NCBI GenBank assembly: GCA_017441205.1
Contig: JAFRYG010000150.1
Location: 3,931-67,930 of the forward strand
Reading direction: 5' to 3'
Length of the DNA: 64,000 nt
Source: Pseudomonadota bacterium
GTDB taxonomy: Bacteria; Myxococcota_A; Bradymonadia; UBA4248
The translations under genes were made by a program, and so were the position numbers. This document shows, in pieces, positions 4,857 through 55,391 of this stretch (position 1 is the first letter of the stretch; each line of letters opens with the position of its first letter). Under the pieces are notes generated by a model. That model did not search any database and had not been told where the DNA came from. It saw only the letters and a list, made by a program, of their open reading frames with translations.

Positions 4857-5948
4857 ATGAAAAAGTTCATTCTTCTGGCTCTGGCCATGTTATCATTTGT
4901 GCTGGTCACTTCGTGTTCCGAAGCTGATTTTGACGATGAGTTTGAGGAGGTCTCTGCTGCTGTCTTGCCGGGCCAACCCGTTTACGCTGACGGCACGCAG
5001 ATGAATAATCTGGTTGCCAAGCGTGTGGCCAAAAAAGTCAATTTCTGGGGCAAGAAGGAAATTGTCGACGAATTCAAGCAGTTCAATGTCCCGAATGCGG
5101 ATTTGGATGTTCTGTACAACGTCAGGATTGCCGAGATTGCCAATCCGGGCGTTCATAAAAACGTCATTTTCATGACAGCCGGACAGAAGATCTCCAGCAG
5201 CGGCCATCAGAACGGCATTACGGGACAGTTTGCGACGTGGGACAGCAACTGCGGCAATGTCCAGTGTACGGGTGTGAGCCTGGACGGTCGTTCCATGGCC
5301 ATGAAACTCAAAGCCCAGAACTGGTTCCCGAATGCCTGGTTCGCCGTAGCGCCCGACAACAATTTTGACTACACGATGTCGAGCGCCAAACGCAGCCGTC
5401 TCGTTCAGGGATTCACCAAATGGCTCGAAAAGAAAATCACGCCCGATACCGAAAATATCGTTCTGGCCGGAAGTTCGCGCGGCGGCTGTCTCGTCGTGCT
5501 GATGGCACAGGAACTGCGCAAAAAATCTGAGTACAATCACATCAACATCTACGTTTCATCGTACGACAGCGTGTGCAAGAGCGATGAGTTCGGCATCACT
5601 TCGACCAAAATCAACAATCCTGTCCGTCCGTCCGGCACATTTTACGGCGGCTGGGCGACCAATCTGAATGCCCAGTTCCCGAATCGCGGAAACCTCCACA
5701 TCTACCACATTTCCGGCGGCCAGGAGATTGTGGCTCTGACTGGTATCCGGACATTTTCCGGCTACAGCGGTTCGACACCGCCGGGTACGGGTTCAGATAT
5801 CGACTGGGGCTGGTACAAGCAAACTTGGGTGCCATGGGCCCACAAGGAAATCGGCAATCCCTATACGCGTCCTGCCGAGGGCGATCGCCCGCAGGCAATA
5901 GCTGATACGATCGATGCCCAGCTCTGGTGGCTCCAGAATCAGCTCTGA
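4857..5948 (+). CDS. Lipoprotein, putative alpha/beta-hydrolase (esterase/lipase-like).
   Basis: AGGAGG RBS. Signal peptide MKKFILLALAMLSFVLVTSC (lipobox). GxSxG nucleophile elbow (LAGSSRGGCLVVL). 363 aa ORF with clean coding frame. Confidence 0.7.
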   Translation: MKKFILLALAMLSFVLVTSCSEADFDDEFEEVSAAVLPGQPVYADGTQMNNLVAKRVAKKVNFWGKKEIVDEFKQFNVPNADLDVLYNVRIAEIANPGVHKNVIFMTAGQKISSSGHQNGITGQFATWDSNCGNVQCTGVSLDGRSMAMKLKAQNWFPNAWFAVAPDNNFDYTMSSAKRSRLVQGFTKWLEKKITPDTENIVLAGSSRGGCLVVLMAQELRKKSEYNHINIYVSSYDSVCKSDEFGITSTKINNPVRPSGTFYGGWATNLNAQFPNRGNLHIYHISGGQEIVALTGIRTFSGYSGSTPPGTGSDIDWGWYKQTWVPWAHKEIGNPYTRPAEGDRPQAIADTIDAQLWWLQNQL

Positions 5949-6556: not shown

Positions 6557-7414
6557 TCACTCACAAACGTCCTTAAAACCATCCACTTCAGTGCACACAT
6601 CAGAACACGTTGACTCAGCAGGTTTTGAGCCACCGCTGCAACTTAGGAGTGTAGTTTCATCCAGACAATATCCCGTGGCATAATTGCCCCAAATAACGCC
6701 ATATTTGCCGGAATCACTCTTCTGGCATACAGCATATTCGAACTTACCGCCATCACAATCACCCGTGCTTACCATATCATATTTAGTATCGTCTGAAGAA
6801 CATGACTCAACACAATCTACCTCACCTCCGAACAGATCACATGCGGTACCACTGCTACACTCATAAACTGCGTACTTGCCACTCTCACACACGAATGCAT
6901 CCCCACCGCAGCACAAATCTTTTGTACACTCGTCACCCTCATTGGGGCAATCACCTGCCGGCGGATTTGTCGAGCTCTCTTTCTTGCACTTCGCGGAACA
7001 GCCATCGCCGTCCGTCTTGTTGCCGTCATCGCATTCCTCGCCGCTTTCTTTCTTACCATTGCCACAGACGGCTGTTGGGGTTGCCTTTAATTTGCAATCG
7101 GCCGTGCAGTCATCACTGCCATCACATTCCTCGCCATTCTCAATTCTTCCATTGCCGCAAACAGGACTGGTCTGTGTCGGTGTCGATGGCGTCGATGGCG
7201 TCGATGGTGTGGTAGTTGTCGTTCCCGTTCCCGTTCCCGGATCCGTAGTGGTTTCATTCAAACAAAGAGCGGAGCAACCATCGCCATCATCGATGTTGCC
7301 ATCATCGCACTCTTCGCCTTCTTCCACGTCGAGTTCACCATTCCCGCAGTTATCGCATCCGGCCATACCGAATGCCGTAAGCAGCAGTGCAAGACTAAAA
7401 ACTTTCAGTTTCAT
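6557..7414 (-). CDS. Lipoprotein built from DUF4215/Myxococcus-type cysteine-rich repeats.
   Basis: Trimmed to MKLKVFSLALLLTAFGMAGC, which is preceded by GAAGGAG. Four repeats of CGNG.xE.GEECDDGN...GDGCS..C. Thr/Pro-rich linker (STPSTPSTP). Confidence 0.75.
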   Translation of the reverse strand: MKLKVFSLALLLTAFGMAGCDNCGNGELDVEEGEECDDGNIDDGDGCSALCLNETTTDPGTGTGTTTTTPSTPSTPSTPTQTSPVCGNGRIENGEECDGSDDCTADCKLKATPTAVCGNGKKESGEECDDGNKTDGDGCSAKCKKESSTNPPAGDCPNEGDECTKDLCCGGDAFVCESGKYAVYECSSGTACDLFGGEVDCVESCSSDDTKYDMVSTGDCDGGKFEYAVCQKSDSGKYGVIWGNYATGYCLDETTLLSCSGGSKPAESTCSDVCTEVDGFKDVCE

Positions 7415-7717
7415 AATAACTCCTTCAACGATGGGCCTTTCAGCCACTGTATCTATCAACCCATTCAAAGCCACAACTATCAGGCTGGCTTCGTATTTTA
7501 GATGTTCCGCAAAAGAACAAAACTGTTTCTAGGATAAAAACAACCCGCAATACTTTCAACAGTTTTTATGCATTATTGCAATTCCGACCACACGCCTCCG
7601 ACAAGAAATGCACACCTTCAGATGTGCTCCGGCTGCGGCATCCGACCTTTTGGGATGCCAAAATCCAATATAGCGCCGTTTCCGGCGCTATATGAATCAG
7701 ATACTGAATTTTTGGGA

Positions 7718-9424
7718 TTATCTTCTGCCGCTGCTCGAAGGACGGCCGCTGCTGCTGCGGGATACGGTGGAAGGACGGGAACCGCTTCCGCTGCGGCCAG
7801 AGCGACTGGCACGCGATCCGTTGCCTTCATCCTCTTCTTCCATGTACTGGCTCTTGCCGCTGGCGCTGGAAACACGTCCGGACGAAGAAGGACGGGAACC
7901 TGAACCGTAGGAACTGCCGCTGCTCGAGGAAGGACGGGAACCTGAACCGTAGGAGCTGCCTGTGCTCGTCGAAGGACGCGAACCTGAGCCATAGGAACTG
8001 CTGCTCGTCGAAGGACGGGAACCTGAGCCGTAGGAGCTGCTGCTCGTCGAAGGACGAGAACCTGAGCCGTAGGAGCTGCTGCTCGTCGAAGGACGCGAAC
8101 CTGTACCGTAGGAGCTGCCCGTGCTCGTCGAAGGACGCGAACCTGTGCCGTAGGAGCTGCCTGTGCTCGTCGAGGGACGCGAACCTGTTCCGTAGGAGCT
8201 GCCCGTACTCGTCGAGGGACGCGAACCTGTACCGTAGGAGCTGCCTGTGCTCGTCGATGGGCGGGAACCTACGCTGCTGCCCGTCGAAGGACGCGATGCT
8301 GTACCATACGATCCACTAGTGCTCGTCGAGGGGCGGGAACCTACGCTGCTGCCCGTCGAAGGACGCGATGCCGTACCATAAGATCCGCTACCAGTGCTCG
8401 TCGAGGGGCGGGAACCTACGTTGCTGCCCGTCGAAGGACGCGATGCCGTACCATAAGATCCACTGCCCGTGCTCGTCGAAGGACGCGAACCCACGTTGCT
8501 GCTGCCCGTCGAAGGACGTGATGCTGAACCATACGATCCGCTGCTGCTACCGGCCGAAGGACGCGAAACGGAGGCGTTGCCGCTCGTCGAAGGACGCGAA
8601 ACGGAGGCGTTGCCGCTCGTCGAAGGACGCGAAACGGAGGCGTTGCCGCTCGTCGAAGGACGCGAAACCGTACCGTTGTAGCTGCCGCCGGCAGACGGAC
8701 GCGAAACGGAATTATTTGCACCACTGTTTGCAGGTCTTGCAACGGAGTTGTTGCCTACATTGCCAGAAGGCCGGGCATTACCGGAGGTCTGATAGACAGT
8801 ATTCGCATTCACACTGCCGCGGCTATTGGAAGCCGATGCACCGCCGTGATTATGACCATGGCCATAATCGGGACCCTGCTGCATACCGACAGAAACCCGA
8901 CCGCCGCTGCTGTAGCGAACAGGCGGATGTGAGCTGTAGTAGCTATGGAGATCATAGTGCCTGTGATGGGGATCGTAATAGCTGTTGCGGGCACCATAGT
9001 ACGTATAATAGTTGTAAGAACCTACACGCGTATAGTTGTAATACCCGGAAGCTGCCCAGTGATGTCTGTGAGGCCCATTGATGTAGCACCAGTGATTCCC
9101 GTAGGGAAGGGGATGAACGCCCATGTAGTAATAGGTGTCGAAATAGATGTTGGAGACGTAGTAGCTCGGATCACCAACAAACACATAACGACCATTGTCA
9201 ATGACGTAAAAATCATCCGAATCCGGCGAATACAGATGGGTATGAGGTCCCTGAATATCGCACCAGTCTGCATTTCCGTTGATATCGTATACAGGATGGG
9301 GTCCATAATATGAAACCCGGGATGCTGCAGTACGCGTGGTGACCGTATATGTGCCCGAATAACACCCACTGAGTGAGAAAATTGAAACAAGCAGTGCGGC
9401 AAGTATTGAAAATCTTCTAATCAT
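7718..9424 (-). CDS. Lipoprotein with a His/Tyr-rich N-terminal domain and a long Ser/Gly/Thr-rich low-complexity repeat tail.
   Basis: Signal peptide plus lipobox, MIRRFSILAALLVSIFSLSGC. A duplicated 'W C x I x G P H x H' motif. About 350 aa of (GSRPSTSTGSSYGT)n encoded by a DNA tandem repeat at about 7900..8700. Confidence 0.7.
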   Translation of the reverse strand: MIRRFSILAALLVSIFSLSGCYSGTYTVTTRTAASRVSYYGPHPVYDINGNADWCDIQGPHTHLYSPDSDDFYVIDNGRYVFVGDPSYYVSNIYFDTYYYMGVHPLPYGNHWCYINGPHRHHWAASGYYNYTRVGSYNYYTYYGARNSYYDPHHRHYDLHSYYSSHPPVRYSSGGRVSVGMQQGPDYGHGHNHGGASASNSRGSVNANTVYQTSGNARPSGNVGNNSVARPANSGANNSVSRPSAGGSYNGTVSRPSTSGNASVSRPSTSGNASVSRPSTSGNASVSRPSAGSSSGSYGSASRPSTGSSNVGSRPSTSTGSGSYGTASRPSTGSNVGSRPSTSTGSGSYGTASRPSTGSSVGSRPSTSTSGSYGTASRPSTGSSVGSRPSTSTGSSYGTGSRPSTSTGSSYGTGSRPSTSTGSSYGTGSRPSTSTGSSYGTGSRPSTSSSSYGSGSRPSTSSSSYGSGSRPSTSSSSYGSGSRPSTSTGSSYGSGSRPSSSSGSSYGSGSRPSSSGRVSSASGKSQYMEEEDEGNGSRASRSGRSGSGSRPSTVSRSSSGRPSSSGRR

Positions 9425-9639: not shown

Positions 9640-9672
9640 TAAAAAAAAGCCCCCTGGCGGGGGGCCTTTTTA
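9640..9672 (-). terminator. Rho-independent terminator for the giant TPR gene (gccccccgccagggggc + T8 on the minus strand). It also looks terminator-like on the plus strand.
   Basis: Perfect GC hairpin at 9648..9663 followed by TTTTTTTT on the minus strand, 10 nt after the stop at 9679. Confidence 0.7.
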
Positions 9673-9678
9673 TCCGAA

Positions 9679-12600
9679 TCAACCAAGATTGGCCAGAGCT
9701 TCTTTTGTCGGCTCATGATTGGGATCGACACTGAGTGCACGATTGAACATGTCCTTCGCGCGTTTCGGATCGTTCGTCTTCACGCGGAGCATGCCAAGGT
9801 AATAGAAGATCTTCGTCTTGACTGCCTTATCCTTGATGTTCATCTGTTGGAGCAGAAGCGACGTCATGGTCTTGAGACCGTTCTCATAGTCCCCGACTTC
9901 ATAAAGCAGGATGCCGAGTTCAAGGTTATTGGGGATGTTGTTCTTGTCGATGGCACTGGCCGCTTCAAAGGCCTGGCGTGCACCAGCAACATCGCCGTTC
10001 AGCTTGAGGATCCTGCCCTTAAGGCTATAGAACGGAGGCAGCCGCTTGTTCTGTTTTGCCGCACTGAGATTTTCAATAATGGTATTGAGAACCTGTGTCG
10101 CCTGTTCGGTCTGATTACATTTGATGTAGGCATTGACGAGTCTTTCGCCCAAATCAATATCATCCGGACGCGAAGCATAAACTTTAGCCAGGGCGGCAGT
10201 TGCCATCGGTGCACAATCTGCATCAGTATCGGCAACATCGGCGATTTCGAGCAGAATCTTGTTCCTGGCCTCATCATCCGTCTGATTGTCAGCACGAATG
10301 TTGAGGAGTTCAATCTGCCTTGATGTATTGTTGGCATTCTTTGCGATATCAAGCAACGCATCGAGAGCCTGCTCGTTTTTCGGATTGCATCTGAGCGCAG
10401 CATTGTAGTTCTCTTCGATCTGAGAAACATCCCAGTTGGCGGTCTTGAGCAATCTGGCGAGATGGCAGTGAAGCTCAGATTTGTCTTCATCGGTCTGGAG
10501 GCATGAGAGTTTGTGATTCAGCATACCCATGGCGAGATCGAAGGATTTCTGCTGCTCATAGATTTCGATGAGTGAATCAATTGCCTCAAGATTACCCGGC
10601 TGTGCCTGAATAACTTCCGTCAGGGATTCAATGGCCTTGTCGGGATCGCCAAGGTGAGTTGCCGCAAGTTTTGCAATACGGATATTGAATGACAAAACAG
10701 CATCCTCGGTCGTGGCTTTTTCTTTCTGTTCCTTCAGGAGTTCGAAGAGTTCCTCGAAGTTTCCGTTGCGGGAATAGATGTCATCCAGTGCATTAAATGC
10801 TTCCACACTCGAAGGATCATCTGCGAGTGCTTCTTTGAGCAGATCGATTGCCTGCAGATCGTCATTGAAGTTGGCAGCCGCAATGTGTGCACGTTTAATG
10901 CGGATGGCAGCTTTCTGTTTTGGATCGTCAGCATCATCGATTTGTGCCAGATAGAGGTCATCGAGGTCCTGATACTGTTCGTGTTTCACGAAGATGTTTT
11001 CGAGTGCGCTGTAAATCTGCGGATCGTGCCTGATTTCCAGTGCACTGCGATAGGCATCAATGGCTGCAGCAGGATCATTGAGCTTGACCTCATTGGTCTG
11101 AGCAATCTTCATCAAAACATCCAGTTTGTCGGAATCTTCACTCAGGGTCAGCAGCTTCTTATTGAGGAGATCGACATATTTATCGAAAGCTCCGGCTTCG
11201 GAATACAGAACGAGCAGAGGATCAATGGCATCAACCGCACGATCATCAATTTCAATGATGCGTTCCAGGAATCCCATACCGCGTTCGTTCTGGCCGAGCG
11301 TATTCAGGGCAAGATCTGCACATTGATAGAGAACCATCTTCTGATCCGAAGCGACGAATGTCAGATCGGCAACGCGCGATTTGATATTGAGCAGATTCTC
11401 GTTATCTCCCTGTTTTGCATAAATACTTTCCAGTGCATGGAGGGCATCCAGATTTTCGGGATCGATCTCGATGATTGCATTGAGGGCGACTTTCGCATCC
11501 TCATAGTTCTCGAGATGTTCAGCCAGCACGTGAGCCTGTTTGGCATAGAGGACGAGTTTCTCGGAATCATCCGAAGCAGCCTCAATTGCTTTTCCATACG
11601 CCTGAGCAAGTTCATTCCAAAGCCCGAGTTCTTCTGCAATTTTTTCGATGGCAGTAAGGACTTCCGTATCCGAAGGATCCTTCGAAAGAGCTTTGACGTA
11701 AGTCGCAAATGCAGCCCTGTTGTCGTTCAGAACCTCGAGTTCGAGTTTTGCAATCTGCTTGAGCAGCATCAGAGCATCCGACGGATCTTCCGTCATATCG
11801 ACCTTGGCCTGAAGCAGTTCGACGAGCTTCCGGTTTTCACCGGTCTTCGTGTAGTAAGGCTCGAGGAATTCGGCAATATCGAGCGTAAGTTCTTTGTGAC
11901 AAAGCAGTTTTTCGAGTGCATGGAGTGCATTCTCATTATCCGCTTCTTCCCAGAGAATCTGTTTGAGCAGTTCGAGTGCGGCTGCAGGCTCTGATTCGAG
12001 TTTGAGCTCCACGAGTTCAAACCGGATTTCGTTGAGGGGCTGAGCACCGGCTTCAACCCTGCGCTGCAGAATAGAAGCGAGTTTTTCCTTTTGATTCGTC
12101 TGTTTGTAGAGACGATGGAGATTCTCAAGCGCACTTTCGTGGAGCGGATCAACATCCATCACGCGTTCAAACTGGACGATCGTCTTATCCGTATCATTCA
12201 GATTCTGCTCATAGTAACGGGCAGCAATGAGTGAGAGCTTGACGGTTGCATCCGGATCATTGGCTTCGCCAATCACCTTCTCACAGAGCTCAGTCATCTT
12301 CCCGTAGCACTCGTGATGCGCAGTCACCTTCTCAGCGAGTTCGATGATTTCATCATCCGTGGGTGAAGCGAGCAGAGCCGAAACGATAAATCCAAGGGCT
12401 TTGTCGGCATCATTGAGCTTTTCGTCGGCAACATTCGCAGCATCCAGATAGAGCGAACGTTTTTCAAAATCGTCTGACGAAACCTGAATCTGACGCTCAC
12501 ACAGGCCAACATACTCAGCATCCTTCTGACAATTCTTATAAATCGGCATCAGGAACGATGCGATTTCGCCGACAAGTCCATCATTGGCCAGCAATTTGTT

Positions 12601-15600
12601 GAGCAAATCAATGGCATCCTGGTTGGATTCATCGTCCTGCAGAATGGCATGAAGGACTTCGATGGCTCTTGCATTGTCATTCAAATCATCGATGAGAATA
12701 TTCGCCATCTTGAGTTCGGTATTGTGCTTGAGATCGGAATCTTCATGTTTTCCGGCATAATCAGCCTTATTCTGGAGGATTTCGAGCAAATCATCATACC
12801 GTTTGGTTTCTCCGTAAAGCTCTTCGAGTGCATTCAGTATTTCGAGATTATCCGGATTCTCATTCAGAGCCTGGACGTAATTCTCGATTGCGCTGTCCAC
12901 ATCATTGAGTTTGTTGCAATAAACACAAGCGACCTTCACCCCCAGAGCGACTCTGGAATCGGAATCTGTTGCCGCATCAATCTTGCGTTTGTAAATGAGA
13001 ATAAGTTCATTCCAGTTCTCAGTCTTCTGATAGAGCAGTTCAAGTGCATCGAGAGCGACCTGATCCTCTGCATCAAGATCGAGAATGGACTGATAGGTCT
13101 GAATTGCAGCATCAACCTGATTGAGCGATTTTTCCTGAAGTTCCGCAATCTGATAGTAAAGATCCTTCTGATCGATCATATTGGATGCATTCTCAGCATG
13201 TTTCTTCAGAACGACCACGCGTTTTTCATGCTGCGCAGTTCTGGCATAAAGATCTTCCAGAGCACAGATTGCATTCATGTGGAATTCATCCAGTTTCAGA
13301 ATTGCCTCGTAGCACTCCGAAGCCTTCTCCAAATCGTTCAGGCTGTCTTTCTGAATTTGTGCAAGCCGTTCATACAGAGCAACTTTCTCGACATCATCAT
13401 CACAGGTCTGAATGGCCTGTTCATAGACACCGGCCAAAATGGCATCATTCTCAAGCTCCGGAGAAATCTCTTCGAGCTTGCAGCGAGCATCGGCCATATT
13501 GGGATCCATGACGAAGGCTTTTGCATAAGTATCAAAAGCACGTCTGTGATGTGAATCATGCGCTTCATAGATTGCAGCCTGCCGCATGTAGAGATTGACT
13601 TTATCCATAGGATCGTCTGCGACTTCGATCATGACATCCAGAACTCGTGCGAGCTTATTCCATTCATCATCCGAATAAAGCGGCTCGAGCATAGTGGCCA
13701 TATTCTTGCGGAGTTCGACATTTTCTTCCGTCGCATCCGTCGCGCTGAGCATCTTCTCGACCGCGCGTTTGCAGGCAGTCGACGAAGGCTGAATGGAAAG
13801 CGCATTTCCGAGAACTTCGATGGCTTCTTCTGTCTTGTGAAGTTCGCGGAAAAGAACCACCCCCAGCTTATGCATGTATTCAACACGAGCATCATCGCTT
13901 GCCGCATAATCGCTCTGCTGACGATAGAATTCGGCGAGTTCATTGAATTGCTCAGTCTTCTTGTACAGGCGTTCAAGAGCCGCAGCTGCACTCGATGAAT
14001 TCTGATCGATTTCGAGCATCTGCTGATAGGTCTTGCATGCAGCCATATCATCATGTTCGAACTCTTCCTGGAGCGTCGCGATGCGCAGCATAAGACCAAG
14101 CTTTTCGTCCTGATCCTGCATGATTTCGGATTTCTGGATCCACAGCCCGAGCAGAGCCTTATAATCGCGTTTCACAGCATAAGACCATTCCAGGATGTCG
14201 TATGCTTCTGCTTCTTCGGGCTCTTCCGCAATCATCTGCCGGCAAAGTTCGCGGGCCTTGTCATGATTGTCGAGACGCTCTGCAAGCAGTTTTGCCAAAG
14301 AAATCATGAACACGCGCTTGTCGTTGTAATCATCGACGAGGTTCTTTTCCAGAACCTGCGTGTAGAGATCAGCCCAAACCTGAAGCTCACCAGTCTGCGC
14401 AGCCAATGCTTCGACTTTTGCCTGGACATTCGAATCCGTCGGCTGCAGCAGGAGAATCCGTCCATAGGTCTCGAGAGCCTTCGATTTGTCCGAAAGATTC
14501 TGCAGCCAGGTCTTCGCAATTTCATCGAGGATCTGGGCCTTCGAGAACTCATCTTCTTCGTGTTCGGCACGAACTTCCAGAGAATGAATGAGTTTATGCC
14601 AATCATTGCCAGCCTGATACAAAGGTTCGAGTATTTCAGCAATCGACGAAACACTGACACCCTTTTCAAAGAGCTCTTCCAGATACGCACGGGCATCGGC
14701 ATGTTCAGAGTTCTCATGGATGATTTCCTGCAGCGTCTGAATTGCTTCATAATCATCGTTGAGCTTTTCATTCTGGATCCTGGCAAGTTTGAATTTAAGA
14801 TCGAGTTTTGATGACTCTTCTGTGGCATCATCGATCTCCGAACGCAGAAGATTGCTCAAATCGTCCCACATCTCCTGCTTTTCATAAATCACATAGAGAT
14901 CATCCTTGGCCTTTGTCTGGCTGCGATCTGTCTCGATAATGCGCTGATAGGTTGCAATTGCATCATCGTGATTGCCGCACAGGGATTCCTGAATTTCTGC
15001 CACGCGGTACAACAGCGGAATCTGCTTATCGCCATCCATTTCGGCATCCAGTTTTGCTTCGAGAATGCCAAGCAAATCGTTCCAGGATTCGCGTTTGGTA
15101 TAAATACCATCCAAAGCATCCAGGGCATGGGCATCATCGGCCTGAACCTCAAGTGTCGCTTTATAATAGGTTTCCGCCTGAGCCTCATCCTCCAGATGAT
15201 CCTTCAGCATATCGGCGATCTTATTATTGAAGGAGACCTGAAGTTCTGCATCGTAGACATTGCCCACAACATCCTTGTACACACCGACCAGTTCAGCTTT
15301 ATTGTTGAGAATCTCAGACAGGTTCTCGATCTGTTCGATATAATCAGGTTCCTGGCTCAGTTTAACGATGCGGGCATAATCCTTGAATGCAGCCTCATAA
15401 TTCGAAAGCTTATCCTGATGAATGCCGGCAATTCTCTTAAGAAGGTCAACCTGGGCGAAGGGATCTGACTCATCAGAGAGCTGAATCTCGAGGATATCAG
15501 CCAGCTTCTCACTCTGTTCCGTGCGCTCATAAACAGTCTCAAGTACGCGCGATGCATCCAGACGATAATCCTCATTCCCGAGCAGTCCGCGCAGAGCTTC

Positions 15601-18600
15601 AAGTGCTCCAGCGTGTTCAGGATGACGTTCGAGAATCGATTTGTAATAATCGATGGCCTGCTCAACCGAATCGAGTTTGTTCTGATAGACCTGACCGAGG
15701 CGATATTCAATGGCATCCGCATTGTCAGCATCGGAATTGAGCGCCAGTTTCTTCTGCAGGATATCCGTCAAATCATCGTAACTTTCCATGCTCAGATAGA
15801 GGCGATCCAATGCATCCAGCGCCTCTTTGTCTTCCGGATAAATATCGAGGATCTGAACATAGTTCTGAATTGCATCATCCTTATGATCGAGTCGTTCTTC
15901 CTGGATATTGGCCATTTTCCAGAGAAGACTGCGTTTCTCATCATTATCTGTGGCGAGCTGCAGTTTAACGCCATAATTCTCCGAAAGATTCTCCCAGTCT
16001 TCCGTCTGTGAGTAGAGAGATTCCAGAGAATTCAGTGCATCGCGATCATCCGAAACATTGTCGAGAATTTCGCGATAGCACTCGATCGCGGACTTCACAT
16101 CACCAATGCAGTCATTGCTGATCGTTGCCATCTTGCGCAGAATCTCGACTTTTTCATCACCATTGCCAAGATCTGCTTTTCGTTTAAGAATTCCAATGAG
16201 TTCCGGCCATTTCTGCTCGTTCGTATAGAGCGTTTCGAGTGCATTCAGCGTCGAAGCATCCATATCGTCAATTTCGAGCATCTTGCGATAAGCCTCAATG
16301 GCATGTTCAGAATCGTGAAGCTCATCTTCATAAATACCGGCCATTCTCTTGAGCAATGAAACCGAGAGCATTTCATCTTCAACCGATTGCAGGCATCCTT
16401 CATAAAGATGAATGATCTCTTCCGGCTGCTCAAGTTTAAGGGCAAGGGATTCAAAATCAGCCCGCAGCGATTCATCCGAAACATCGAGCTTCAGCGCATC
16501 CTTCAGTGCATCGAATGCACCTCTGTCATCATTGAGATCTTTCTGAAGAATTCCAGCAATGCGGCGATTGAGCTCAACTTTTTCATAGTTGTCATCGCAG
16601 TCCGCCAGCTTGATGCGCAAAAGCGAAATCAGCTCGGACATGCTCGATTTTTCGACATAAATCGGTTCCAGAAGCTCGCAGATCGAAGCGCGATATTCTG
16701 CCGCATTCTCATCCTCAACCGAAACGAGCTTCCGCAGAAGTGCATCAGCTGACGCAATGACTTCATCATCGCGTTTAACTTCGAGAATCGCACGATAGCA
16801 CTCAATCGCACCCTCATAATTCGCCAGATGTTCCGTATAAACCCCGGCCAGTTTGCTGCGAATGGCTTCCACGCGGTCAGAGTCCGAATAGATATTGAGC
16901 TCATCTTCATACAACGAGGCCAGTTCGTTCCACTTCTCATTCGACGAATACAGACGTTCCAGAGCATTCAAAGCCTCTTCGCGAGTAGAATCGATTTCGA
17001 GCACTGCACGGAAAATGCGGATCGCATCTTCGGGCTTCTCGAGGATATCCTCATAAATCTGGGCAGCTTCGAGGTGAATGCGAATGCGTTCATCGTCCGA
17101 GAAATCCGAAAGTTCCGTCTCAAACTCGTAGAGTTTAACGAGCTTCTCAAACATTGACGCGGATTTATAGAGTTTTTCAAGGTGCTGGATGGGTTCGATC
17201 TTCTCGGGTTCATGCGCATGCAGCTGTTCCCACAGCACGATGCTGTCGTCCTCTTTGCCGAGTTTTTCTTCGACGATCAGGGCACGGCGGCGCAGCAGCT
17301 CATAACGCCAGTCATCGTTAAACTCTTCATCCAGCGGAACATCGGCATAAAGCGCACTGATCTGCTCCCACTTCGAAACATCATTCGCGCCTTCTGCGAG
17401 CATCGCCAGATTGTCCCAGACTCTTTCATCATCCGGAGTCAGCATGAACAGACGGACAGAAACATCAAATGCCGCAACATCATCATGAAGGACATCATGA
17501 CGAATATCGAATATCTGCCAGAGAACGGGGACTTTTTCTGCCTTATCCAGCGATTTAAGCCGGATTTCAAGAGCTTCGCACTGTTTGGCATGAGAACCAG
17601 CCTGTTCGTACACAGGTTCGAGAATCTGGGCAATCCGTCCGGGTTCCGTTCCTCCGCGAACCAGTTCCTCGAGAGTAGCTATCGTGCGTACATGCCCCGG
17701 ATCCTCATTCAGAATGGAGGCATACAGCTGAATTGCATCATCCGTCTGTCCCAGGTGCGTACGTTCTATTTCTGCCAGTTCAAACATGAGCTCGAGGCGT
17801 CCATCAGACTCAAGTTCCTGTTCACGTTTGAGAATTTCAACGAGTTTCGGCCAATTCTCCGTCGTATCATAAATCGATTTCAGGCCGCGAAGGGCATCCA
17901 GATTTGAACTGTCGATATCGAGAATGCGCTGATACGATTTTTCAGCTTCATCCAGCTGTGTAAGCTGCGTCGTAAGCAGATTCGCGCGTTTGAATGAAAG
18001 ATTGATGATCTCGGAATCATCCTCCGTCAGACCAAGTTTCCGGTCGACGGCTGCCAGCAGTTTATCCCAGCTGCAGGACTGCTCATACAGTTCACAGAGT
18101 GCATTGATTGCCTCAAGATCCCGTTCGTCTGCGTTCAGGCAGTATTCCCAGCTTGCGATGGCATCTTCAGTCTTCGAAAGCTTCTGCTGACACGTGCGCG
18201 CAAGTACACGATGAACGCCCAGGCGGGACGTATCATCCAGTTCCCCGGATTTGACCAGACCGCCATAAACATCGCCAAGGAGCGCATAGGATTCGCTCTT
18301 GTCCACGAGCGATTCAAAATGCTCGCGCAAATCTCCGCGATTGGGAGCAAGTGCAACGGCCTTGGCATACCAGTTCACCGCACACTCAATATTGCCGAGA
18401 CTCTCTTCGTACAGATTCGCGATCTGAACATGCATGGCGATCTTTTCTTCCATGTTGGAAGTCCATGCAATAATGATCTGGATCGCATCGATCGCCTTGG
18501 CATGATCCCCGCGTTCCATATAGAATTCCAGCAGCCGCTTTGCCGTCTTTTCATGCGTCGGATCCACTTCGAGAATCTTCTCGTAGGCAGCAACCGCCAT

Positions 18601-21600
18601 ATCCCTGTCGTTCAAATGTTCCAGGGCAACCTTCGCCTGACGTTCGTACAGATCGATCTGGGTATCCACATTGTCGAGATCACCAGCTGTCAAATCGAGC
18701 AGTTCATACAGCTCTGCGGCTTTTCCCTGTTCAAGATACAGCTCAATGAGTGCATCCCATTCTTCTGCATCCCGATGAAGCTGAGTCAGCTGTTCGAGAG
18801 CCTGGTCCCTGCCCTCATCCATTCCGAGCATCTGATGAAGTGTATCCAGACCCTTGTCGCGCTGATCGAGATGCGTCAGATACAGATTCGCAATCTTCTC
18901 CATGTTGTCGACGCGCTCTGATTCGCTGTGCGAACATGTCAGGGCTCTCTCATACACACTCTTCAGTGCTTCATAATTGCCCTGTTTGCCGTACAGACGC
19001 GTGAGTTCTTCGAGCGCTTCACTGGGATCCTCAAGCACTTTGCTCATATTCTCCCAGCTATCGATGGCTTTCTCGACGCTGTGAAGATGCTCTTCAGCTA
19101 TCTCCGCCTGATTCTTCAAAAGCGAAACTTTTTCGGCATTATCCGCAACATCGACTTCCTTGCTGATTATCTCGTAAAGATTTGCCCAATTGTTGCGCTG
19201 CTCATAAGCCTCATGAAGCTTACAGAGCGCATGGCGCTGCGTCGGATCAATTTCAACAACTTTGGTCAGCGGCTCAATCGCTCTCGTCGCATTGCCAAGA
19301 CTGTCACTCCACAGGTTGGCGATCCGGTAGTAAATCTCAACCGCCGTTTCCTTGTCTGTCGTCGTTTCCGCCTTCTGCGTCAGAATCTTGAGCAGATCAT
19401 TCCAGCGCTTCGAGGCTTCATATCGCTCGATCAGTGCATTCACGGCTTCCATATTCTCGGGATCTATCTCGAGAATCTGATGGTATGCCTTGATAACCTG
19501 ATTGTCGTTGTGCTGCTGTTCATCGTAGATCTTGATGCACTTTCTGAGTACTTCAATTCTGGCATCCTTCTGATCCGGTTCGAGCGCTTCAAAATCATTC
19601 TTATAAATCTCAAGCAGTCCCTGCCATTTTTGCATGCGCTGATACAGACCAATCAGTTCTTCTCGCGCAACATCAACAAACTGGCCTTCCTTGAGCATCT
19701 GCTTCCAGATGTTCTCGGCCTTGTTCGGATTGTTCAGCTTGTTTTCGCTGACATCTGCGATCTGACGCAGAACATTCAGCTCCCGGTAGCTGCCCGCCAC
19801 TGCAACTTTCAATGTCTGCAGAGTGCTCAGCACGCGCTGCCAGTCGCCTGCCGATTCATAATACCGACAATAAAAACGCAGCATCCGGCAGTTCTTGGGC
19901 TCGGCAAGTTTAATGCGTCTGAACTGTTCTTCGGCATCCCTCAGCGAATCGAGACGATCGCAATAGATGTGCGCCAGATCCAGCATCATCGGGACTTCTT
20001 CCGGCGTTCTTCTGATCTTCTTGAGAACTTCCACCATGCTGGCAGTCAGTGTCTGAAGCTCACTCCTGTCTTTGCCGGCGAGAATGGCTTTTGCCTTATA
20101 GGCTGCTCTGTCTTCACCTTCTGCGATCGGCGTGGCGATTTCGACAGCCTCATCCCGGCGCTCAAGATGAAGATCCAGCACGTCGGCACGATCAGCAGAC
20201 AATATTCGCTTCGATGATTCTTCCGGAAGTTTGGATACCAATGCTGCCAGAGTCGCATCCAGCGGCTCGTAACTGCCCACCTCTTCGAGAGCATCACACA
20301 GCGGCCAGGCTTCATCAATTTCCGAAATCAGGTCACACGCTTTTGCTGCGACATCACCGATGGAATCTTTCTGTTCCAAATCTGCAAGACGATAGATCGT
20401 TTCGCAGCATTCCAGAATAGAATTCACATTATCACTATTCACCAATGTTCTGGCGGCTTCAGTTTTAACTTCATCCACCTTCCTGGGGGCTTCTGCAGGC
20501 TTAGCCTCTGCTGCTGCTTTAGCTTCTGCGGCTGCCTTGGCTTCTTCTGCAGCCTTCGCCTCTGCCGCTGCTTTAGCTTCTTCTGCTGCTCTGGCTTCTT
20601 CCGCGGCCTTCGCTTCTTCCGCGGCCTTCGCTTCTGCTGCTGCTCTGGCTTCTTCTGCGGCCTTCGCTTCTTCCGCGGCCTTCGCTTCTTCCGCGGCCTT
20701 CGCTTCTTCTGCTGCCTTCGCTTCTGCTGCAACTCTGGCTTCTTCCGCGGCCTTCGCTTCTTCCGCGGCTCTGGCTTCTTCCGCAGCCTTCGCTTCTGCT
20801 GCAGCTCTGGCTTCTTCTGCGGCCTTCGCCTCTGCTGCGGCTCTGGCTTCTTCCGCGGCCTTCGCTTCTGCTGCAGCTCTGGCTTCTTCTGCGGCCTTCG
20901 CTTCTGCTGCGGCTCTGGCTTCTTCCGCGGCCTTCGCTTCTTCCGCGGCCTTCGCTTCTTCCGCGGCCTTCGCTTCTTCTGCAGCCTTCGCTTCTGCTGC
21001 AGCTCTGGCTTCTTCTGCGGCCTTCGCCTCTTCCGCGGCCTTCGCTTCTTCTGCAGCCTTCGCTTCTTCCGCGGCCTTCGCTTCTTCTGCAGCCTTCGCT
21101 TCCTTCTCTGCCTTGGCTTCAGCGGCGGCCGTAATCTTTGCTACAAATTTTTCTACCGCTTCGTTGTCAATCGCACGCGCCTTGGCCTCAAACTCTTCGG
21201 CCTTGGCCATATCGCCAATATCGTTCCTGCACAGCAGGCTGAGCATCATGAGCAGTTCTGCCTTACGCGAATCAGAATCCGTATGCTTCAGTTCAAGCTG
21301 CAGCAACTTGACCACCATCTTGAAGTTGCCATTGACGCGATAAATGCGCCTTGCCGCATCAAAACTCTCCGCTCGCCCGATCCACGCCTTGACCGCCATC
21401 TGGTAGGCCGTAATAGCCTCATCCGGTCGCTGAATTTTGCGCTCATATATCTGGCCACAATAATGCAGGAGCAAGCTCTTCTTAACTGCATCATCCTCAT
21501 TGTCTGCAGCCATCATCAGGGTCGAAACGACCCCCGGCCAGTCTGCAAATTCAGGATTATCATCATGCAATTTAATCAGTTTCTTCCACTGACGTTTCTC

Positions 21601-21684
21601 CATAAAGATATCGGCACTCCGCTGAAATTCCTCAATGGAAGATGTCACCATTGCATCCTGACCCACATTGTTTTGCTCTTTCAT
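9679..21684 (-). CDS. Giant (about 4001 aa) tetratricopeptide-repeat (TPR) protein with an N-proximal (AEEAK/AEEAR)n coiled-coil-like repeat block.
   Basis: Uninterrupted 12 kb ORF. Start trimmed to MKEQNNVG, which is preceded by AGAGGAAG. Dozens of 34-residue TPR-like units (W-LG-Y--A--Y---L--P-N pattern, e.g. 'AIEAYRKMLEIDDMD', 'NWNELILIYKRK'). The repeat block is encoded by the 15/30-bp DNA tandem repeat at about 20490..21140. Confidence 0.85.
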   Translation of the reverse strand: MKEQNNVGQDAMVTSSIEEFQRSADIFMEKRQWKKLIKLHDDNPEFADWPGVVSTLMMAADNEDDAVKKSLLLHYCGQIYERKIQRPDEAITAYQMAVKAWIGRAESFDAARRIYRVNGNFKMVVKLLQLELKHTDSDSRKAELLMMLSLLCRNDIGDMAKAEEFEAKARAIDNEAVEKFVAKITAAAEAKAEKEAKAAEEAKAAEEAKAAEEAKAAEEAKAAEEARAAAEAKAAEEAKAAEEAKAAEEAKAAEEARAAAEAKAAEEARAAAEAKAAEEARAAAEAKAAEEARAAAEAKAAEEARAAEEAKAAEEARVAAEAKAAEEAKAAEEAKAAEEAKAAEEARAAAEAKAAEEAKAAEEARAAEEAKAAAEAKAAEEAKAAAEAKAAAEAKPAEAPRKVDEVKTEAARTLVNSDNVNSILECCETIYRLADLEQKDSIGDVAAKACDLISEIDEAWPLCDALEEVGSYEPLDATLAALVSKLPEESSKRILSADRADVLDLHLERRDEAVEIATPIAEGEDRAAYKAKAILAGKDRSELQTLTASMVEVLKKIRRTPEEVPMMLDLAHIYCDRLDSLRDAEEQFRRIKLAEPKNCRMLRFYCRYYESAGDWQRVLSTLQTLKVAVAGSYRELNVLRQIADVSENKLNNPNKAENIWKQMLKEGQFVDVAREELIGLYQRMQKWQGLLEIYKNDFEALEPDQKDARIEVLRKCIKIYDEQQHNDNQVIKAYHQILEIDPENMEAVNALIERYEASKRWNDLLKILTQKAETTTDKETAVEIYYRIANLWSDSLGNATRAIEPLTKVVEIDPTQRHALCKLHEAYEQRNNWANLYEIISKEVDVADNAEKVSLLKNQAEIAEEHLHSVEKAIDSWENMSKVLEDPSEALEELTRLYGKQGNYEALKSVYERALTCSHSESERVDNMEKIANLYLTHLDQRDKGLDTLHQMLGMDEGRDQALEQLTQLHRDAEEWDALIELYLEQGKAAELYELLDLTAGDLDNVDTQIDLYERQAKVALEHLNDRDMAVAAYEKILEVDPTHEKTAKRLLEFYMERGDHAKAIDAIQIIIAWTSNMEEKIAMHVQIANLYEESLGNIECAVNWYAKAVALAPNRGDLREHFESLVDKSESYALLGDVYGGLVKSGELDDTSRLGVHRVLARTCQQKLSKTEDAIASWEYCLNADERDLEAINALCELYEQSCSWDKLLAAVDRKLGLTEDDSEIINLSFKRANLLTTQLTQLDEAEKSYQRILDIDSSNLDALRGLKSIYDTTENWPKLVEILKREQELESDGRLELMFELAEIERTHLGQTDDAIQLYASILNEDPGHVRTIATLEELVRGGTEPGRIAQILEPVYEQAGSHAKQCEALEIRLKSLDKAEKVPVLWQIFDIRHDVLHDDVAAFDVSVRLFMLTPDDERVWDNLAMLAEGANDVSKWEQISALYADVPLDEEFNDDWRYELLRRRALIVEEKLGKEDDSIVLWEQLHAHEPEKIEPIQHLEKLYKSASMFEKLVKLYEFETELSDFSDDERIRIHLEAAQIYEDILEKPEDAIRIFRAVLEIDSTREEALNALERLYSSNEKWNELASLYEDELNIYSDSDRVEAIRSKLAGVYTEHLANYEGAIECYRAILEVKRDDEVIASADALLRKLVSVEDENAAEYRASICELLEPIYVEKSSMSELISLLRIKLADCDDNYEKVELNRRIAGILQKDLNDDRGAFDALKDALKLDVSDESLRADFESLALKLEQPEEIIHLYEGCLQSVEDEMLSVSLLKRMAGIYEDELHDSEHAIEAYRKMLEIDDMDASTLNALETLYTNEQKWPELIGILKRKADLGNGDEKVEILRKMATISNDCIGDVKSAIECYREILDNVSDDRDALNSLESLYSQTEDWENLSENYGVKLQLATDNDEKRSLLWKMANIQEERLDHKDDAIQNYVQILDIYPEDKEALDALDRLYLSMESYDDLTDILQKKLALNSDADNADAIEYRLGQVYQNKLDSVEQAIDYYKSILERHPEHAGALEALRGLLGNEDYRLDASRVLETVYERTEQSEKLADILEIQLSDESDPFAQVDLLKRIAGIHQDKLSNYEAAFKDYARIVKLSQEPDYIEQIENLSEILNNKAELVGVYKDVVGNVYDAELQVSFNNKIADMLKDHLEDEAQAETYYKATLEVQADDAHALDALDGIYTKRESWNDLLGILEAKLDAEMDGDKQIPLLYRVAEIQESLCGNHDDAIATYQRIIETDRSQTKAKDDLYVIYEKQEMWDDLSNLLRSEIDDATEESSKLDLKFKLARIQNEKLNDDYEAIQTLQEIIHENSEHADARAYLEELFEKGVSVSSIAEILEPLYQAGNDWHKLIHSLEVRAEHEEDEFSKAQILDEIAKTWLQNLSDKSKALETYGRILLLQPTDSNVQAKVEALAAQTGELQVWADLYTQVLEKNLVDDYNDKRVFMISLAKLLAERLDNHDKARELCRQMIAEEPEEAEAYDILEWSYAVKRDYKALLGLWIQKSEIMQDQDEKLGLMLRIATLQEEFEHDDMAACKTYQQMLEIDQNSSSAAAALERLYKKTEQFNELAEFYRQQSDYAASDDARVEYMHKLGVVLFRELHKTEEAIEVLGNALSIQPSSTACKRAVEKMLSATDATEENVELRKNMATMLEPLYSDDEWNKLARVLDVMIEVADDPMDKVNLYMRQAAIYEAHDSHHRRAFDTYAKAFVMDPNMADARCKLEEISPELENDAILAGVYEQAIQTCDDDVEKVALYERLAQIQKDSLNDLEKASECYEAILKLDEFHMNAICALEDLYARTAQHEKRVVVLKKHAENASNMIDQKDLYYQIAELQEKSLNQVDAAIQTYQSILDLDAEDQVALDALELLYQKTENWNELILIYKRKIDAATDSDSRVALGVKVACVYCNKLNDVDSAIENYVQALNENPDNLEILNALEELYGETKRYDDLLEILQNKADYAGKHEDSDLKHNTELKMANILIDDLNDNARAIEVLHAILQDDESNQDAIDLLNKLLANDGLVGEIASFLMPIYKNCQKDAEYVGLCERQIQVSSDDFEKRSLYLDAANVADEKLNDADKALGFIVSALLASPTDDEIIELAEKVTAHHECYGKMTELCEKVIGEANDPDATVKLSLIAARYYEQNLNDTDKTIVQFERVMDVDPLHESALENLHRLYKQTNQKEKLASILQRRVEAGAQPLNEIRFELVELKLESEPAAALELLKQILWEEADNENALHALEKLLCHKELTLDIAEFLEPYYTKTGENRKLVELLQAKVDMTEDPSDALMLLKQIAKLELEVLNDNRAAFATYVKALSKDPSDTEVLTAIEKIAEELGLWNELAQAYGKAIEAASDDSEKLVLYAKQAHVLAEHLENYEDAKVALNAIIEIDPENLDALHALESIYAKQGDNENLLNIKSRVADLTFVASDQKMVLYQCADLALNTLGQNERGMGFLERIIEIDDRAVDAIDPLLVLYSEAGAFDKYVDLLNKKLLTLSEDSDKLDVLMKIAQTNEVKLNDPAAAIDAYRSALEIRHDPQIYSALENIFVKHEQYQDLDDLYLAQIDDADDPKQKAAIRIKRAHIAAANFNDDLQAIDLLKEALADDPSSVEAFNALDDIYSRNGNFEELFELLKEQKEKATTEDAVLSFNIRIAKLAATHLGDPDKAIESLTEVIQAQPGNLEAIDSLIEIYEQQKSFDLAMGMLNHKLSCLQTDEDKSELHCHLARLLKTANWDVSQIEENYNAALRCNPKNEQALDALLDIAKNANNTSRQIELLNIRADNQTDDEARNKILLEIADVADTDADCAPMATAALAKVYASRPDDIDLGERLVNAYIKCNQTEQATQVLNTIIENLSAAKQNKRLPPFYSLKGRILKLNGDVAGARQAFEAASAIDKNNIPNNLELGILLYEVGDYENGLKTMTSLLLQQMNIKDKAVKTKIFYYLGMLRVKTNDPKRAKDMFNRALSVDPNHEPTKEALANLG
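20490..21140 (-). repeat. In-frame DNA tandem repeat (15-bp unit gcttcttccgcggcc and variants) encoding about 60 copies of AEEAK/AEEAR inside the giant TPR gene.
   Basis: Visible periodic DNA. The antisense frame gives a spurious poly-Ala/Ser ORF, 20537..21343. Confidence 0.85.
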
Positions 21685-21995
21685 GGCTTCCTCTAGGCAA
21701 CAATAATTATACCGGTGCGCGTGCACCTAAAAATGCGCATTATGTTCTATAACATCCAAAATTTGCATTCAAGCAAAGACCGATTATAAGGTAATTTTCC
21801 TTAAAATTCCCTTATTCTGTGCCATTTGCAGTGCGGTGGCCTATTGCATACGGCCACCAGTGTTTGTCTTTTGCCCTATGGGCAATACGACAAACAGCGC
21901 TTTTTTTCAATACCTTGTCGCAACGCCGCACAATACCTACATATCGCCTATCACATCTACCCCACTGTACCCGGGGTTACGCTGCGCTGTTCCTC

Positions 21996-22095
21996 AAACG
22001 TGTCGCGACACGTCTCTACGCATTACGAATTACGCATTCGCATTCGCATTAAATTAACCCAATAATCATCTGTACAGACGTGTCGCGACACGTCT
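21996..22095. promoter_or_regulatory. Duplicated palindromic candidate operator: aaACGTGTCGCGACACGTct at 21996..22015 and the perfect 20-bp palindrome AGACGTGTCGCGACACGTCT at 22076..22095. It lies in the divergent region between the giant TPR gene and glpK.
   Basis: Two copies about 80 bp apart, each followed by gcatt-type short repeats. They lie about 160-260 bp upstream of the glpK start. Confidence 0.4.
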
Positions 22096-22099
22096 CTAA

Positions 22100-22170
22100 G
22101 CATTAAGCATTAAGCATTATGCATTAAGCATTATGCATTAAGCATTATGCATTAAGCATTGTGCATTGCG
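22100..22170. repeat. Tandem heptanucleotide repeat (gcattaa/gcattat) x about 10 upstream of glpK.
   Basis: Direct inspection: gcattaagcattaagcattatgcattaagcattatgcattaagcattatgcattaagcattgtgcattgcg. Confidence 0.8.
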
Positions 22171-22257
22171 AATTACGTCGTACAAAACATCAAAATTGTT
22201 ATATACAATCCTCACACATCCCACGGGAATCCTATCCCCACGACAAGGAGTACCAAC

Positions 22258-35800: not shown

Positions 35801-35870
35801 GAACATTTTGCTCATCGCATGCAGTCAGCAATATGCCCAAAATAATCAAATAAAGATGTCGACTTTTCAT
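32856..35870 (-). CDS. Secreted trypsin-like (S1) serine protease with 9 tandem about 50-aa cysteine repeats and a C-terminal hydrophobic helix + basic tail.
   Basis: Signal peptide MKSRHLYLIILGILLTAC. Catalytic triad blocks TAAHC, DIAL, GDSGGP. The repeats 'CGDNIVNN.E.CDGS.FKGNKT.C.QWDSKYSAGNVSCT..CEIDYS.C' are encoded by near-identical DNA units at about 33020..34340. The tail reads LPVLWLAVIGAGAVLRRKKQ. Confidence 0.85.
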   Translation of the reverse strand: MKSRHLYLIILGILLTACDEQNVPPSFGTNAQPILYGTLDTDKPEVVSLFVPDVRDTVYKTCDSDFVFLCAFLYGDNYTCATNDKKNYCLEKCSKPASTSFCRNNNGYVMTSHGICKAIEGGNVFIEDTSSANQLCAGGCNISQTDCDSGGTTDYLECRDEDAEQCSPLRCLMSPRLIYCLPTCSASGQTTKQCSEGHTHVFQCKNVNGTQMWAPLDESGYDCKSKCNDAGTDCDGFGPDLPPAEGTVPGDTYCTGTLIHPQWVLTAAHCVTDTESEFITESEDNEIAKVGIGYNENALIPYDTAGAEYFFYHPEYQSTDDFALNDIALIKLNKPIGSDVAAPVPPLPKWLAFAPDGLPEMMVTSGFGVDENGVSGKKMSISIPTTHYCGTYNPEAGETCDVGFVHIEGCHPNKEYCEEYGYYDATVPVSIPYHTMYAPYNDGGHCSGDSGGPTFYTVGGKRYVVGVTSYGDPPCRTFNVSTAVQDYYDWIISIAPEVAGQYKEICGNGYDDDGNDKIDCDDPACSCCGNGKLDNLENCDGSIFSNNKTKCADWDSMYSAGNVACTKSCEIDYSQCIVTANCGDHILGDGELCDGSVFKGNKTQCVQWDSKYSAGNVSCTSSCEIDYSKCTLAPYCGDNIVNNSELCDGLQIIDDKTQCAQWDSKYSAGNVSCTSSCEIDYSKCTLAPYCGDSIVNNDELCDGSNFKGNKTKCIHWDTKYSAGNVSCTNDCEIDYSECILAPHCGDNIVNNNESCDGSSFKGDRTQCIQWDSKYSAGNVSCTNDCRIDYSQCTLRPYCGDNVINNYELCDGAAFVENKTQCAQWDNKYTEGTVGCTKDCKIDFSQCIATPYCGDNIVNGDEQCDGSAFEGNRNHCRQWDSKYNSGLVKCTEDCKIDFSQCVLTPYCGDDIVNNGEPCDGNFFADDKIKCEQWGYKYSNGDVSCTKDCEIDYSNCYATVVHVDEHPDCTAVPLKSKHSKLPVLWLAVIGAGAVLRRKKQAVLRQN

Positions 35871-45814: not shown

Positions 45815-45977
45815 TGTTTTAAACCTCCATACGTGATGTTTTGATGCATGCAAATCGCATTGTACTTTATGTTGAGAGTTTCTGAGTCAAAAGGTATGTT
45901 CCGTGTTTCTGTATGATGCAATCATGCCCCTCTGTATTGTACTTCGCCAATGCAGAGGTTCATATATCACTGTTCAT

Positions 45978-55194: not shown

Positions 55195-55391
55195 CCAATA
55201 CATCACCAACGACAACCAGCGTATCCATGTTCTCCGGACATTCCATGGAATGTTCCGGACTGAGCATGCCCAATTGACGTAATACTTCAATTCTCTGCAA
55301 AAAATACTTATAATACGCCCCGTGTTTGCGTGCGCAAATTTTTGGTCTTTTTACCATTTCTGAGCCAGGAGGCAGCCACGACGGAGGTTAT

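Follow-up and report, generated by a model that had tools for sequence, protein, structure and literature searches.

We propose that the giant tetratricopeptide repeat (TPR) protein of 4001 residues encoded at positions 9679..21684 (minus strand) of the 64,000-nucleotide stretch of contig JAFRYG010000150.1 analysed here, which we call the window, is a multivalent cytoplasmic scaffold of the GltI type, and that its most likely client is a gliding or envelope motor complex of the UBA4248-like gut lineage of Myxococcota. We place the probability of this reading at about 0.55. The protein would be a soluble, very acidic, all-alpha scaffold in which a head, an Ala/Glu/Lys spacer, a continuous TPR solenoid and a C-terminal TPR domain follow one another. 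Longer units bearing a LEPxY signature appear to split the solenoid into near-equivalent modules, each of which would offer a like binding surface, so that docking could be multivalent. With the same kind of surface on every module, a single giant could gather several copies of a partner, spacing them over some 100 nm.

An intact gene under strong purifying selection

The open frame runs uninterrupted on the minus strand from 21726 to 9679 and counts 4015 codons if begun at a GTG; started from the ATG at 21684, the product has 4001 residues. The coding sequence, taken from the list of open reading frames (ORFs) and its translation, includes the stop codon at 9679-9681. All features of the gene given below lie on the same strand, in coordinates of the window. 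Read from the sequence, the ATG is preceded by AGAGGAAGCC, and a ribosome-binding site, GAGGAAG, is found at 21687..21693 with its GAGG core 5 nucleotides before the start. The same MKEQ start begins a fragmentary orthologue from a faecal metagenome (protein P0001, contig L001). Because an intrinsic terminator of its own, a 12-bp G+C-rich stem followed by a T run (9643..9671), lies 8 nucleotides past the stop codon, the gene is probably monocistronic. Promoter scans upstream of the gene gave matches at chance level only. The computed product has a mass of 452.6 kDa, an isoelectric point of 4.58 and a net charge of –356, and it carries neither a signal peptide nor a membrane segment, the maximum 19-residue Kyte-Doolittle score being 1.18.

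A scan of Genome Taxonomy Database genomes found full-length orthologues, about 66% identical, in two Myxococcota metagenome-assembled genomes (MAGs). In 'Myxococcales bacterium UBA4248' (L002) the orthologous ORF is intact at 4004 residues, and in 'Myxococcota bacterium ... SGB_3670' (L003) 3649 codons are read up to the contig end without a stop. Over 3579 codons aligned between the window and L002, nonsynonymous divergence (dN) is 0.25 and synonymous divergence (dS) 2.3, a dN/dS of about 0.11. A metagenome contig with 99.0% nucleotide identity (L016) covers 6823 nucleotides of the gene free of gaps and stops, with an amino-acid change in 14 of 2274 codons. Our data demonstrate that the TPR giant is a real, intact gene under strong purifying selection, and the intact TPR frame of 4001 residues that an earlier note had described from the letters of this DNA stands.

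A TPR solenoid divided by LEPxY units

Pfam matches of the giant are to TPR-type families alone, led by TPR_7 (E = 1.8e-43) and followed by TPR_6, TPR_8, TPR_1 and TPR_2 (these five at E from 1e-31 to 1e-43) and by others, and an NCBIfam scan returned no model at its cut-off. The protein is made of the helix-turn-helix repeats of about 34 residues, stacked into a solenoid, that characterise the TPR superfamily. In a BLOSUM autocorrelation of residues 421-4001 a single peak dominates, at an offset of 72 residues (z = 7). A hidden Markov model (HMM) built iteratively from the giant counts about 47 copies of this 72-residue double-TPR super-repeat, 2 before the Ala/Glu/Lys block and about 45 after it, which supplies the unit count that the earlier note had called for.

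The N-terminal TPR head (aa 1-186, 21127..21684) holds two of the 72-residue units, matched by the repeat HMM at aa 60-116 and 127-177. By sliding identity it is the least conserved part of the giant (39% to the L002 orthologue), and it aligns with the N-termini of the closest members of the family described below (P0022, P0026, P0023 and P0117). Between the spacer and the regular array lies an irregular helical region (aa 399-560, 20005..20490) with few or weak repeat-HMM matches and with a confidence score (predicted local distance difference test, pLDDT) below 50 in a single-sequence AlphaFold2 model; it is recognisable in the closest relatives only, BLAST matching P0022 alone among 150 family representatives and identity to the L002 orthologue being 57%. 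The main TPR solenoid (aa 561-3853, 10126..20004) comprises about 45 of the double-TPR super-repeats, at some 36 residues per hairpin, and a family-specific C-terminal TPR domain (aa 3800-4001, 9682..10287) contains canonical TPR_1/TPR_2 matches at aa 3958-3990.

At seven places the regular spacing is interrupted by longer units with the signature ...H..A...L..LL... [I/L]LEPxY...W.KL...LE[I/V]. The motifs stand at aa 1354, 1671, 2047, 2351, 2665, 3044 and 3273, 229-379 residues apart, with 3-5 regular super-repeats between neighbours. From the N-terminal side the special units are unit 1 with ILEPVY (aa 1323-1385, 17530..17718), unit 2 with LLEPIY (aa 1638-1704, 16573..16773), unit 3 with VLETVY (aa 2015-2080, 15445..15642), unit 4 with ILEPLY (aa 2319-2384, 14533..14730), unit 5 with MLEPLY (aa 2632-2697, 13594..13791), unit 6 with FLMPIY (aa 3012-3076, 12457..12651) and unit 7 with FLEPYY (aa 3241-3305, 11770..11964). 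The earlier note had seen the Ala/Glu/Lys block as the only element outside the TPR array, a view that has to give way to an architecture with a head of about 186 residues, an irregular region, seven LEPxY units and a C-terminal domain.

Structure prediction, another of the checks that the note proposed, was run on a module of 541 residues (aa 1590-2130) with a family alignment of 12 sequences. The AlphaFold2 model (mean pLDDT 92.7) has 30 helices, that is 15 hairpins, in an unbroken solenoid that includes two LEPxY units; scaled from this model, the whole giant would have roughly 105 TPR hairpins. A Foldseek search of the PDB with the module returned only TPR platforms of multiprotein complexes (Ctr9, OGT/SPINDLY, IFT139/TTC21, Ski3 and TTC7B), and a PDB sequence search returned designed consensus TPRs only. 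The eukaryotic scaffolds resemble the giant in their alpha-alpha solenoid and as platforms for multiprotein complexes, but they are 3-10 times shorter, their sequence relation to it is limited to the TPR consensus, and the TM-scores (template modelling scores) are low, at 0.2-0.36.

A large family of giants in Myxococcota

On sequence comparison, the TPR giant belongs to a large family of giants of 3700 to 4200 residues that is ordinary in Myxococcota and for which no curated model exists. With aa 1650-2840 as query, a full HMMER scan of proteins clustered at 50% identity, each cluster represented once, returned 7324 matches, 2053 of them at E<1e-30. Lengths, C-terminal domains, LEPxY units and spacers were counted in the best 150 of the 7324 representatives: 124 are at least 3500 residues long and 103 measure between 3700 and 4200, with a median of 3759. 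The earlier note held giants of this size to be rare, which these counts contradict for this phylum; it also suggested looking for relatives in predatory bacteria, and the family is indeed found in Myxococcota, a phylum that includes predators.

Many representatives are collinear with the giant over more than 1000 residues at equivalent positions, the query segment aa 1650-2840 corresponding to aa 1616-2807 in P0022 and aa 1631-2761 in P0023. The C-terminal domain (aa 3800-4001) matches 128 of the 150 representatives; 63% of these matches reach the extreme C-terminus (the last 3% of the protein), and the best are 39-58% identical. LEPxY units occur family-wide, with a median of 5 per protein (7 in the giant) where shuffling predicts about 0.1, and with a median spacing of 313 residues; the strict motif is about 25 times commoner in the family than in shuffled sequences. 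The number of 72-residue super-repeat units is 47 in the giant against a family median of 40. In length with a collinear body, in its C-terminal domain and in a 72-residue super-repeat with LEPxY units, the giant has the features that define the family.

Individual members such as P0022 (3966 residues), P0023 (4026 residues) and P0042 (MBU0553488.1, 3823 residues) have the C-terminal domain, the super-repeat and LEPxY in common with the giant, the N-terminal head being common to the closest members and an N-proximal acidic low-complexity block present in some; they differ in sequence, with identities of 25-38% except for P0022, which is 55% identical. Look-ups of 20 representatives found them named 'tetratricopeptide repeat protein' [Myxococcota/Myxococcales bacterium] or, from JGI, 'golgin subfamily B member 1'. 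Look-ups of proteins of the window by identical sequence returned no entry. The giant of the window is in this respect ordinary, one more copy of a widespread Myxococcota scaffold.

Several observations were made at the margins of the family. One representative from ENA (P0099) is, at 7720 residues, about double the length typical of the family; it has 31 matched stretches and could be a tandem fusion or duplication. Matches of 1500-1700 residues were considered as true relatives or split giants and rejected as such, because they align in many registers and lack the family C-terminal domain; they are paralogues of the same repeat type. Tandem half-size TPR proteins of this repeat type are encoded on contigs L004 (4392-16181; 1607+1511+566 residues) and L005 (5227-14893; 1580+1630 residues), those of L004 downstream of a gene for an FHA-domain protein, and the C-terminal domain of the giant family was not found in the half-size proteins of either contig.

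A predicted helical acidic spacer with rapid turnover

The tandem repeat encodes aa 186-398 (20491..21129) as 35 units of 18 bp, a delimitation based on Tandem Repeats Finder, a census of units and AlphaFold2. The program places an array of period 18 at 20490..21120 (35.1 copies, 79% matches, score 672) and lists none of period 15. The 35-36 hexads are mainly AAEEAK (14 copies), AAAEAK (10) and AAEEAR (9), encoded by 19 distinct 18-mers. The N-proximal Ala/Glu/Lys block of about 200 residues that the earlier note had described is present, at 213 residues, whereas its unit, given as an AEEAK pentad in about 60 copies of 15 bp, has to be replaced by the hexad.

The block is 54% Ala, 28% Glu and 17% Lys/Arg, with a net charge of –24. 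We rejected it as a canonical coiled coil, the structure that had been assigned to it: a period of 6 residues cannot give a heptad seam, no hydrophobic a/d seam is present, and the hydrophobic moment, about 0.09 at 100 degrees, falls to 0.04 at the heptad angle of 102.9 degrees. Ala is the sole apolar residue and is distributed all round the helix, and Glu and Lys/Arg stand at i+3/i+4 spacing. In the single-sequence AlphaFold2 model long helices span residues 174-283 and 291-392 (pLDDT about 70), with a break at 284-290. A helical acidic spacer is the more likely structure on this modelling, with a length of about 32 nm if it were helical throughout. Marqusee-Baldwin AEAAAKA peptides, (EAAAK)n linkers, TolA domain II and ER/K single alpha-helices are Ala-based monomeric helices or rigid linkers. 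The block is like such helices in being Ala-rich, in its i+3/i+4 pairing of Glu with Lys/Arg, in lacking a hydrophobic seam and in being predicted helical; it is unlike them in its ratio of Glu to Lys/Arg of about 2:1 and the resulting negative charge.

The position of the block is exactly the same in all close orthologues, and its repeat unit differs among them (6, 9 or 16 residues). The orthologue of UBA4248 (L002) has AAEEAK in 34 copies, that of SGB_3670 (L003) a 9-residue unit, DVVEEAKAE, on a contig that begins inside the array, and the faecal-metagenome fragment P0001 the 16-residue unit AVEESTAVAEEKTEEV; the next relative, P0022, has a block of 190 residues rich in Glu, Ala, Val and Ser. 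Pairwise identities among the four close orthologues are all similar, at 63-71%. The 99%-identical contig L016 has 68 mismatches to the window, 24 of which belong to the 165 nucleotides of assembled repeat (a caveat being that these form a contig end inside the repeat), a divergence of 14.5% against 0.66% elsewhere, or about 22-fold. The repeat block turns over fast, and the variability that the earlier note expected of it is borne out. Such turnover would proceed by in-frame gain, loss and homogenisation of units.

Across the family, an acidic low-complexity block, often tandemly repeated, is found in 19 of the 150 best representatives, at about aa 190-500 in 16 of them. The repeat block of the giant may thus be the local form of a variable acidic spacer that takes the same position in part of the family. 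Since the carriers of a block are the longer members, much of the spread in length is accounted for. Most other spacers in the family are rich in Glu, Asp, Pro, Ser and Val and probably disordered, or there is none, whereas that of the window is helix-prone.

Two other explanations of this locus turn on the repeat. The 12-kb ORF might be a pseudogene or a misassembled repeat, and two related assemblies (L003 and L016) do break within the block, so that the copy number of 35 is approximate and could be imprecise. We nevertheless reject both readings, which retain a minimal probability, because the orthologues are independently intact, dN/dS is low and the L016 contig is stop-free; the frame has 0 stops in 4001 codons, and 19 distinct 18-mers among 35 units make a collapsed array less likely. 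The faster divergence of the tandem repeat relative to its flanks would also fit a contingency locus, at which a surface-exposed protein is switched or varied. Slippage at a phase-variable repeat shifts the reading frame or alters a promoter, and neither applies to a unit of 18 bp within the coding sequence: slippage stays in frame, and only the length or sequence of the spacer can change, not the on or off state of expression. Given in addition that the block lies between folded domains of a protein predicted to be cytoplasmic, we consider a contingency locus highly improbable.

Resemblance to GltI and the likely role of the giant

GltI, also named AgmK (MXAN_4863, UniProt Q1D2V1), is a cytosolic protein of Myxococcus xanthus with 3822 residues, made of TPRs, about 1100 angstroms long and without a signal peptide (PMC4508894, PMC11761067). 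In the Agl-Glt gliding focal-adhesion complex it acts as the cytoplasmic scaffold; it localises to these adhesions in an MglA-dependent manner, its mutant is non-motile, and AlphaFold modelling predicts that it can receive the GltG FHA domain at six superimposable sites and the GltJ GYF domain at two (PMC4508894, PMC11761067, PMC3169522, PMC13104615). The giant of the window comes from the same phylum, has a similar size (4001 against 3822 residues), is TPR over nearly its full length and has no signal peptide, and it would share the cytosolic location for which GltI is described. It also has near-equivalent repeated candidate sites, seven LEPxY units where six FHA sites are predicted in GltI. 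Because the family fits the description of GltI in phylum, size, composition, location and modular repetition, we think it probable that GltI is itself a member of the Myxococcota giant-TPR family.

Several points weigh against a GltI-type role. The likeness is drawn from the published description of GltI, the names Myxococcus and AgmK are absent from the labels of the 150 best family representatives, and the match between seven LEPxY units and six predicted FHA sites is a numerical resemblance only. In M. xanthus gltI lies beside gltJ and gltH-D in the G1 cluster, whereas the 64-kb window holds no glt or agl gene, nor do such genes adjoin seven other family members; likewise, no FHA/TonB_C, GYF, MotA/ExbB or ExbD gene was found among the window ORFs or beside these seven. 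In many lineages ancient glt linkages have disappeared (PMC3169522). The genomes of UBA4248 are small, at about 3 Mb (PMC8772591). The accounts of GltI cited here make no mention of a helical spacer of the AAEEAK type, and the host of the window differs from M. xanthus in belonging to a low-G+C (about 48-50%), gut-associated lineage.

In an alternative reading the giant-TPR family is not that of GltI, or the lineage does not glide, and the protein is a general cytoplasmic scaffold or molecular ruler in another process such as polarity, cytoskeleton or envelope synthesis. The genes of the family stand alone in housekeeping neighbourhoods, none of the seven with glt neighbours, and conserved size together with strong purifying selection fits a core cellular role. 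Yet GltI is the sole experimentally studied Myxococcota protein of such size and composition, homologues of it are reported across all Myxococcales suborders (PMC3169522, PMC4508894), and it would be surprising if one phylum held two independent families of all-TPR cytosolic proteins of about 3800 residues. We regard this alternative as possible and rather unlikely. From the place of the gene next to secreted-enzyme genes and its divergent orientation to glpK, the earlier note suggested that the giant may be a scaffold for assembly or a chaperone; in the form considered here, it would serve these secreted neighbours and oligomerise through the (AEEAK)n coiled coil. In favour of this, the window is rich in secreted hydrolases and lipoproteins, and the closest relatives keep both the divergent glpK and, downstream, the repeat lipoprotein in synteny with the giant. 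However, this context is not conserved across the family: seven other members adjoin unrelated housekeeping genes, among them RuvX/YceG, histidine biosynthesis, phosphatidylserine decarboxylase and class IV aminotransferase, and a neighbourhood that varies in this way makes the secreted-enzyme genes of the window uninformative on the function of the giant. The separate terminator, the lack of export signals, the missing heptad seam and the replacement of the block in other members by acidic sequence rich in Pro, Ser and Asp speak against it as well, so that this role is largely refuted and very improbable. A GltI-type multivalent scaffold is the reading that we favour.

Genomic neighbourhood and lineage

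In the close relatives, as in the window, glpK lies divergently upstream of the giant and a lipoprotein with Ser/Thr/Pro repeats downstream. The latter is encoded in the window at 7718-9424 (minus strand) as a predicted lipoprotein of 568 residues with a signal peptide ending in LSGC; a His/Tyr-rich N-domain and two 'WC.I.GPH.H' motifs are followed by about 25 tandem repeats of the SRPSTS(T)GSSYG type. Neither Pfam nor NCBIfam gave a match for it, and L002 (21156-22802) and L003 (from about 11085) have it in the same downstream position. The intergenic region between the giant and glpK (21995-22175) contains the perfect 16-bp palindrome ACGTGTCGCGACACGT twice, 80 bp apart, each copy preceding an array built of 7-bp units (TACGCAT/TAAGCAT/TATGCAT), of which 9-10 copies stand at 22097-22167. 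At the equivalent site L002 has (GAGCAAT)n arrays together with a direct repeat of 122 bp (8302-8591), and L001 has 3.5 copies of a 68-bp repeat (5330-5567). These intergenic repeats could be a regulatory element, or one resembling repetitive extragenic palindromes, upstream of glpK.

Some neighbours recur elsewhere in the family: phosphatidylserine decarboxylase stands beside giants in L008 and L017 and class IV aminotransferase in L014 and L017. In two high-G+C members a gene for a PF13699 protein (eCIS_core, formerly DUF4157) of about 219 residues lies directly upstream of the giant, and PF13699 genes were located at 9177-9836 in L007, 8941-9597 in L011 and 142-798 in L012.

Further along the window, positions 28700-60368 form a dense cluster of genes for large predicted secreted proteins. 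Among these proteins are a trypsin-like protein (32856-35870), a DUF285 protein (36088-38604), three C39-like peptidase paralogues (39808-42336, 42659-45853 and 45978-48533), two of them with SH3 domains, and two tandem paralogues combining an M23 peptidase with FG-GAP and MopE motifs (55326-57764 and 57768-60368). Cysteine-rich DUF4215 repeat proteins are encoded at 6557-7474 and 51947-55159. The secreted-protein set of the window fits a predatory or lytic lifestyle.

The lineage of the window appears to be a low-G+C (45-53%), gut-associated group of Myxococcota, to which L001, L002, L003, L013 and L016 would also belong and whose relatives include UBA4248 and MAGs of the SGB type. The sample of L001 is labelled MUNK18 and is apparently a livestock faecal metagenome. 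UBA4248 sp004554395 comes from pig faeces and has a genome of about 3.07 Mb (PMC8772591).

Implications

Giants of the GltI type seem to make up one large family, fixed in length and without a Pfam or NCBIfam model, whose architecture can be defined: a head, a variable acidic spacer, 72-residue super-repeats that LEPxY units divide into groups, and the C-terminal domain. Repeated partner-binding sites have been proposed for GltI, and the LEPxY units are concrete candidates for them. The spacer offers a clean natural case in which position is conserved while sequence and period are free, with turnover by tandem units.

The occurrence of such a giant in gut Myxococcota raises the question of gliding in poorly known gut bacteria. 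We tentatively suggest that small-genome gut Myxococcota of the UBA4248 kind, known from pig and poultry faeces, might keep a full GltI-type scaffold and with it an Agl-Glt-like machine, gliding and perhaps predation, with the spacer acting as a ruler of about 30 nm and the LEPxY units as docking sites. If this were so, a spacer tuned in each lineage would set the reach of the N-terminal head, and family-wide docking at LEPxY units would explain how one giant clusters several motors.

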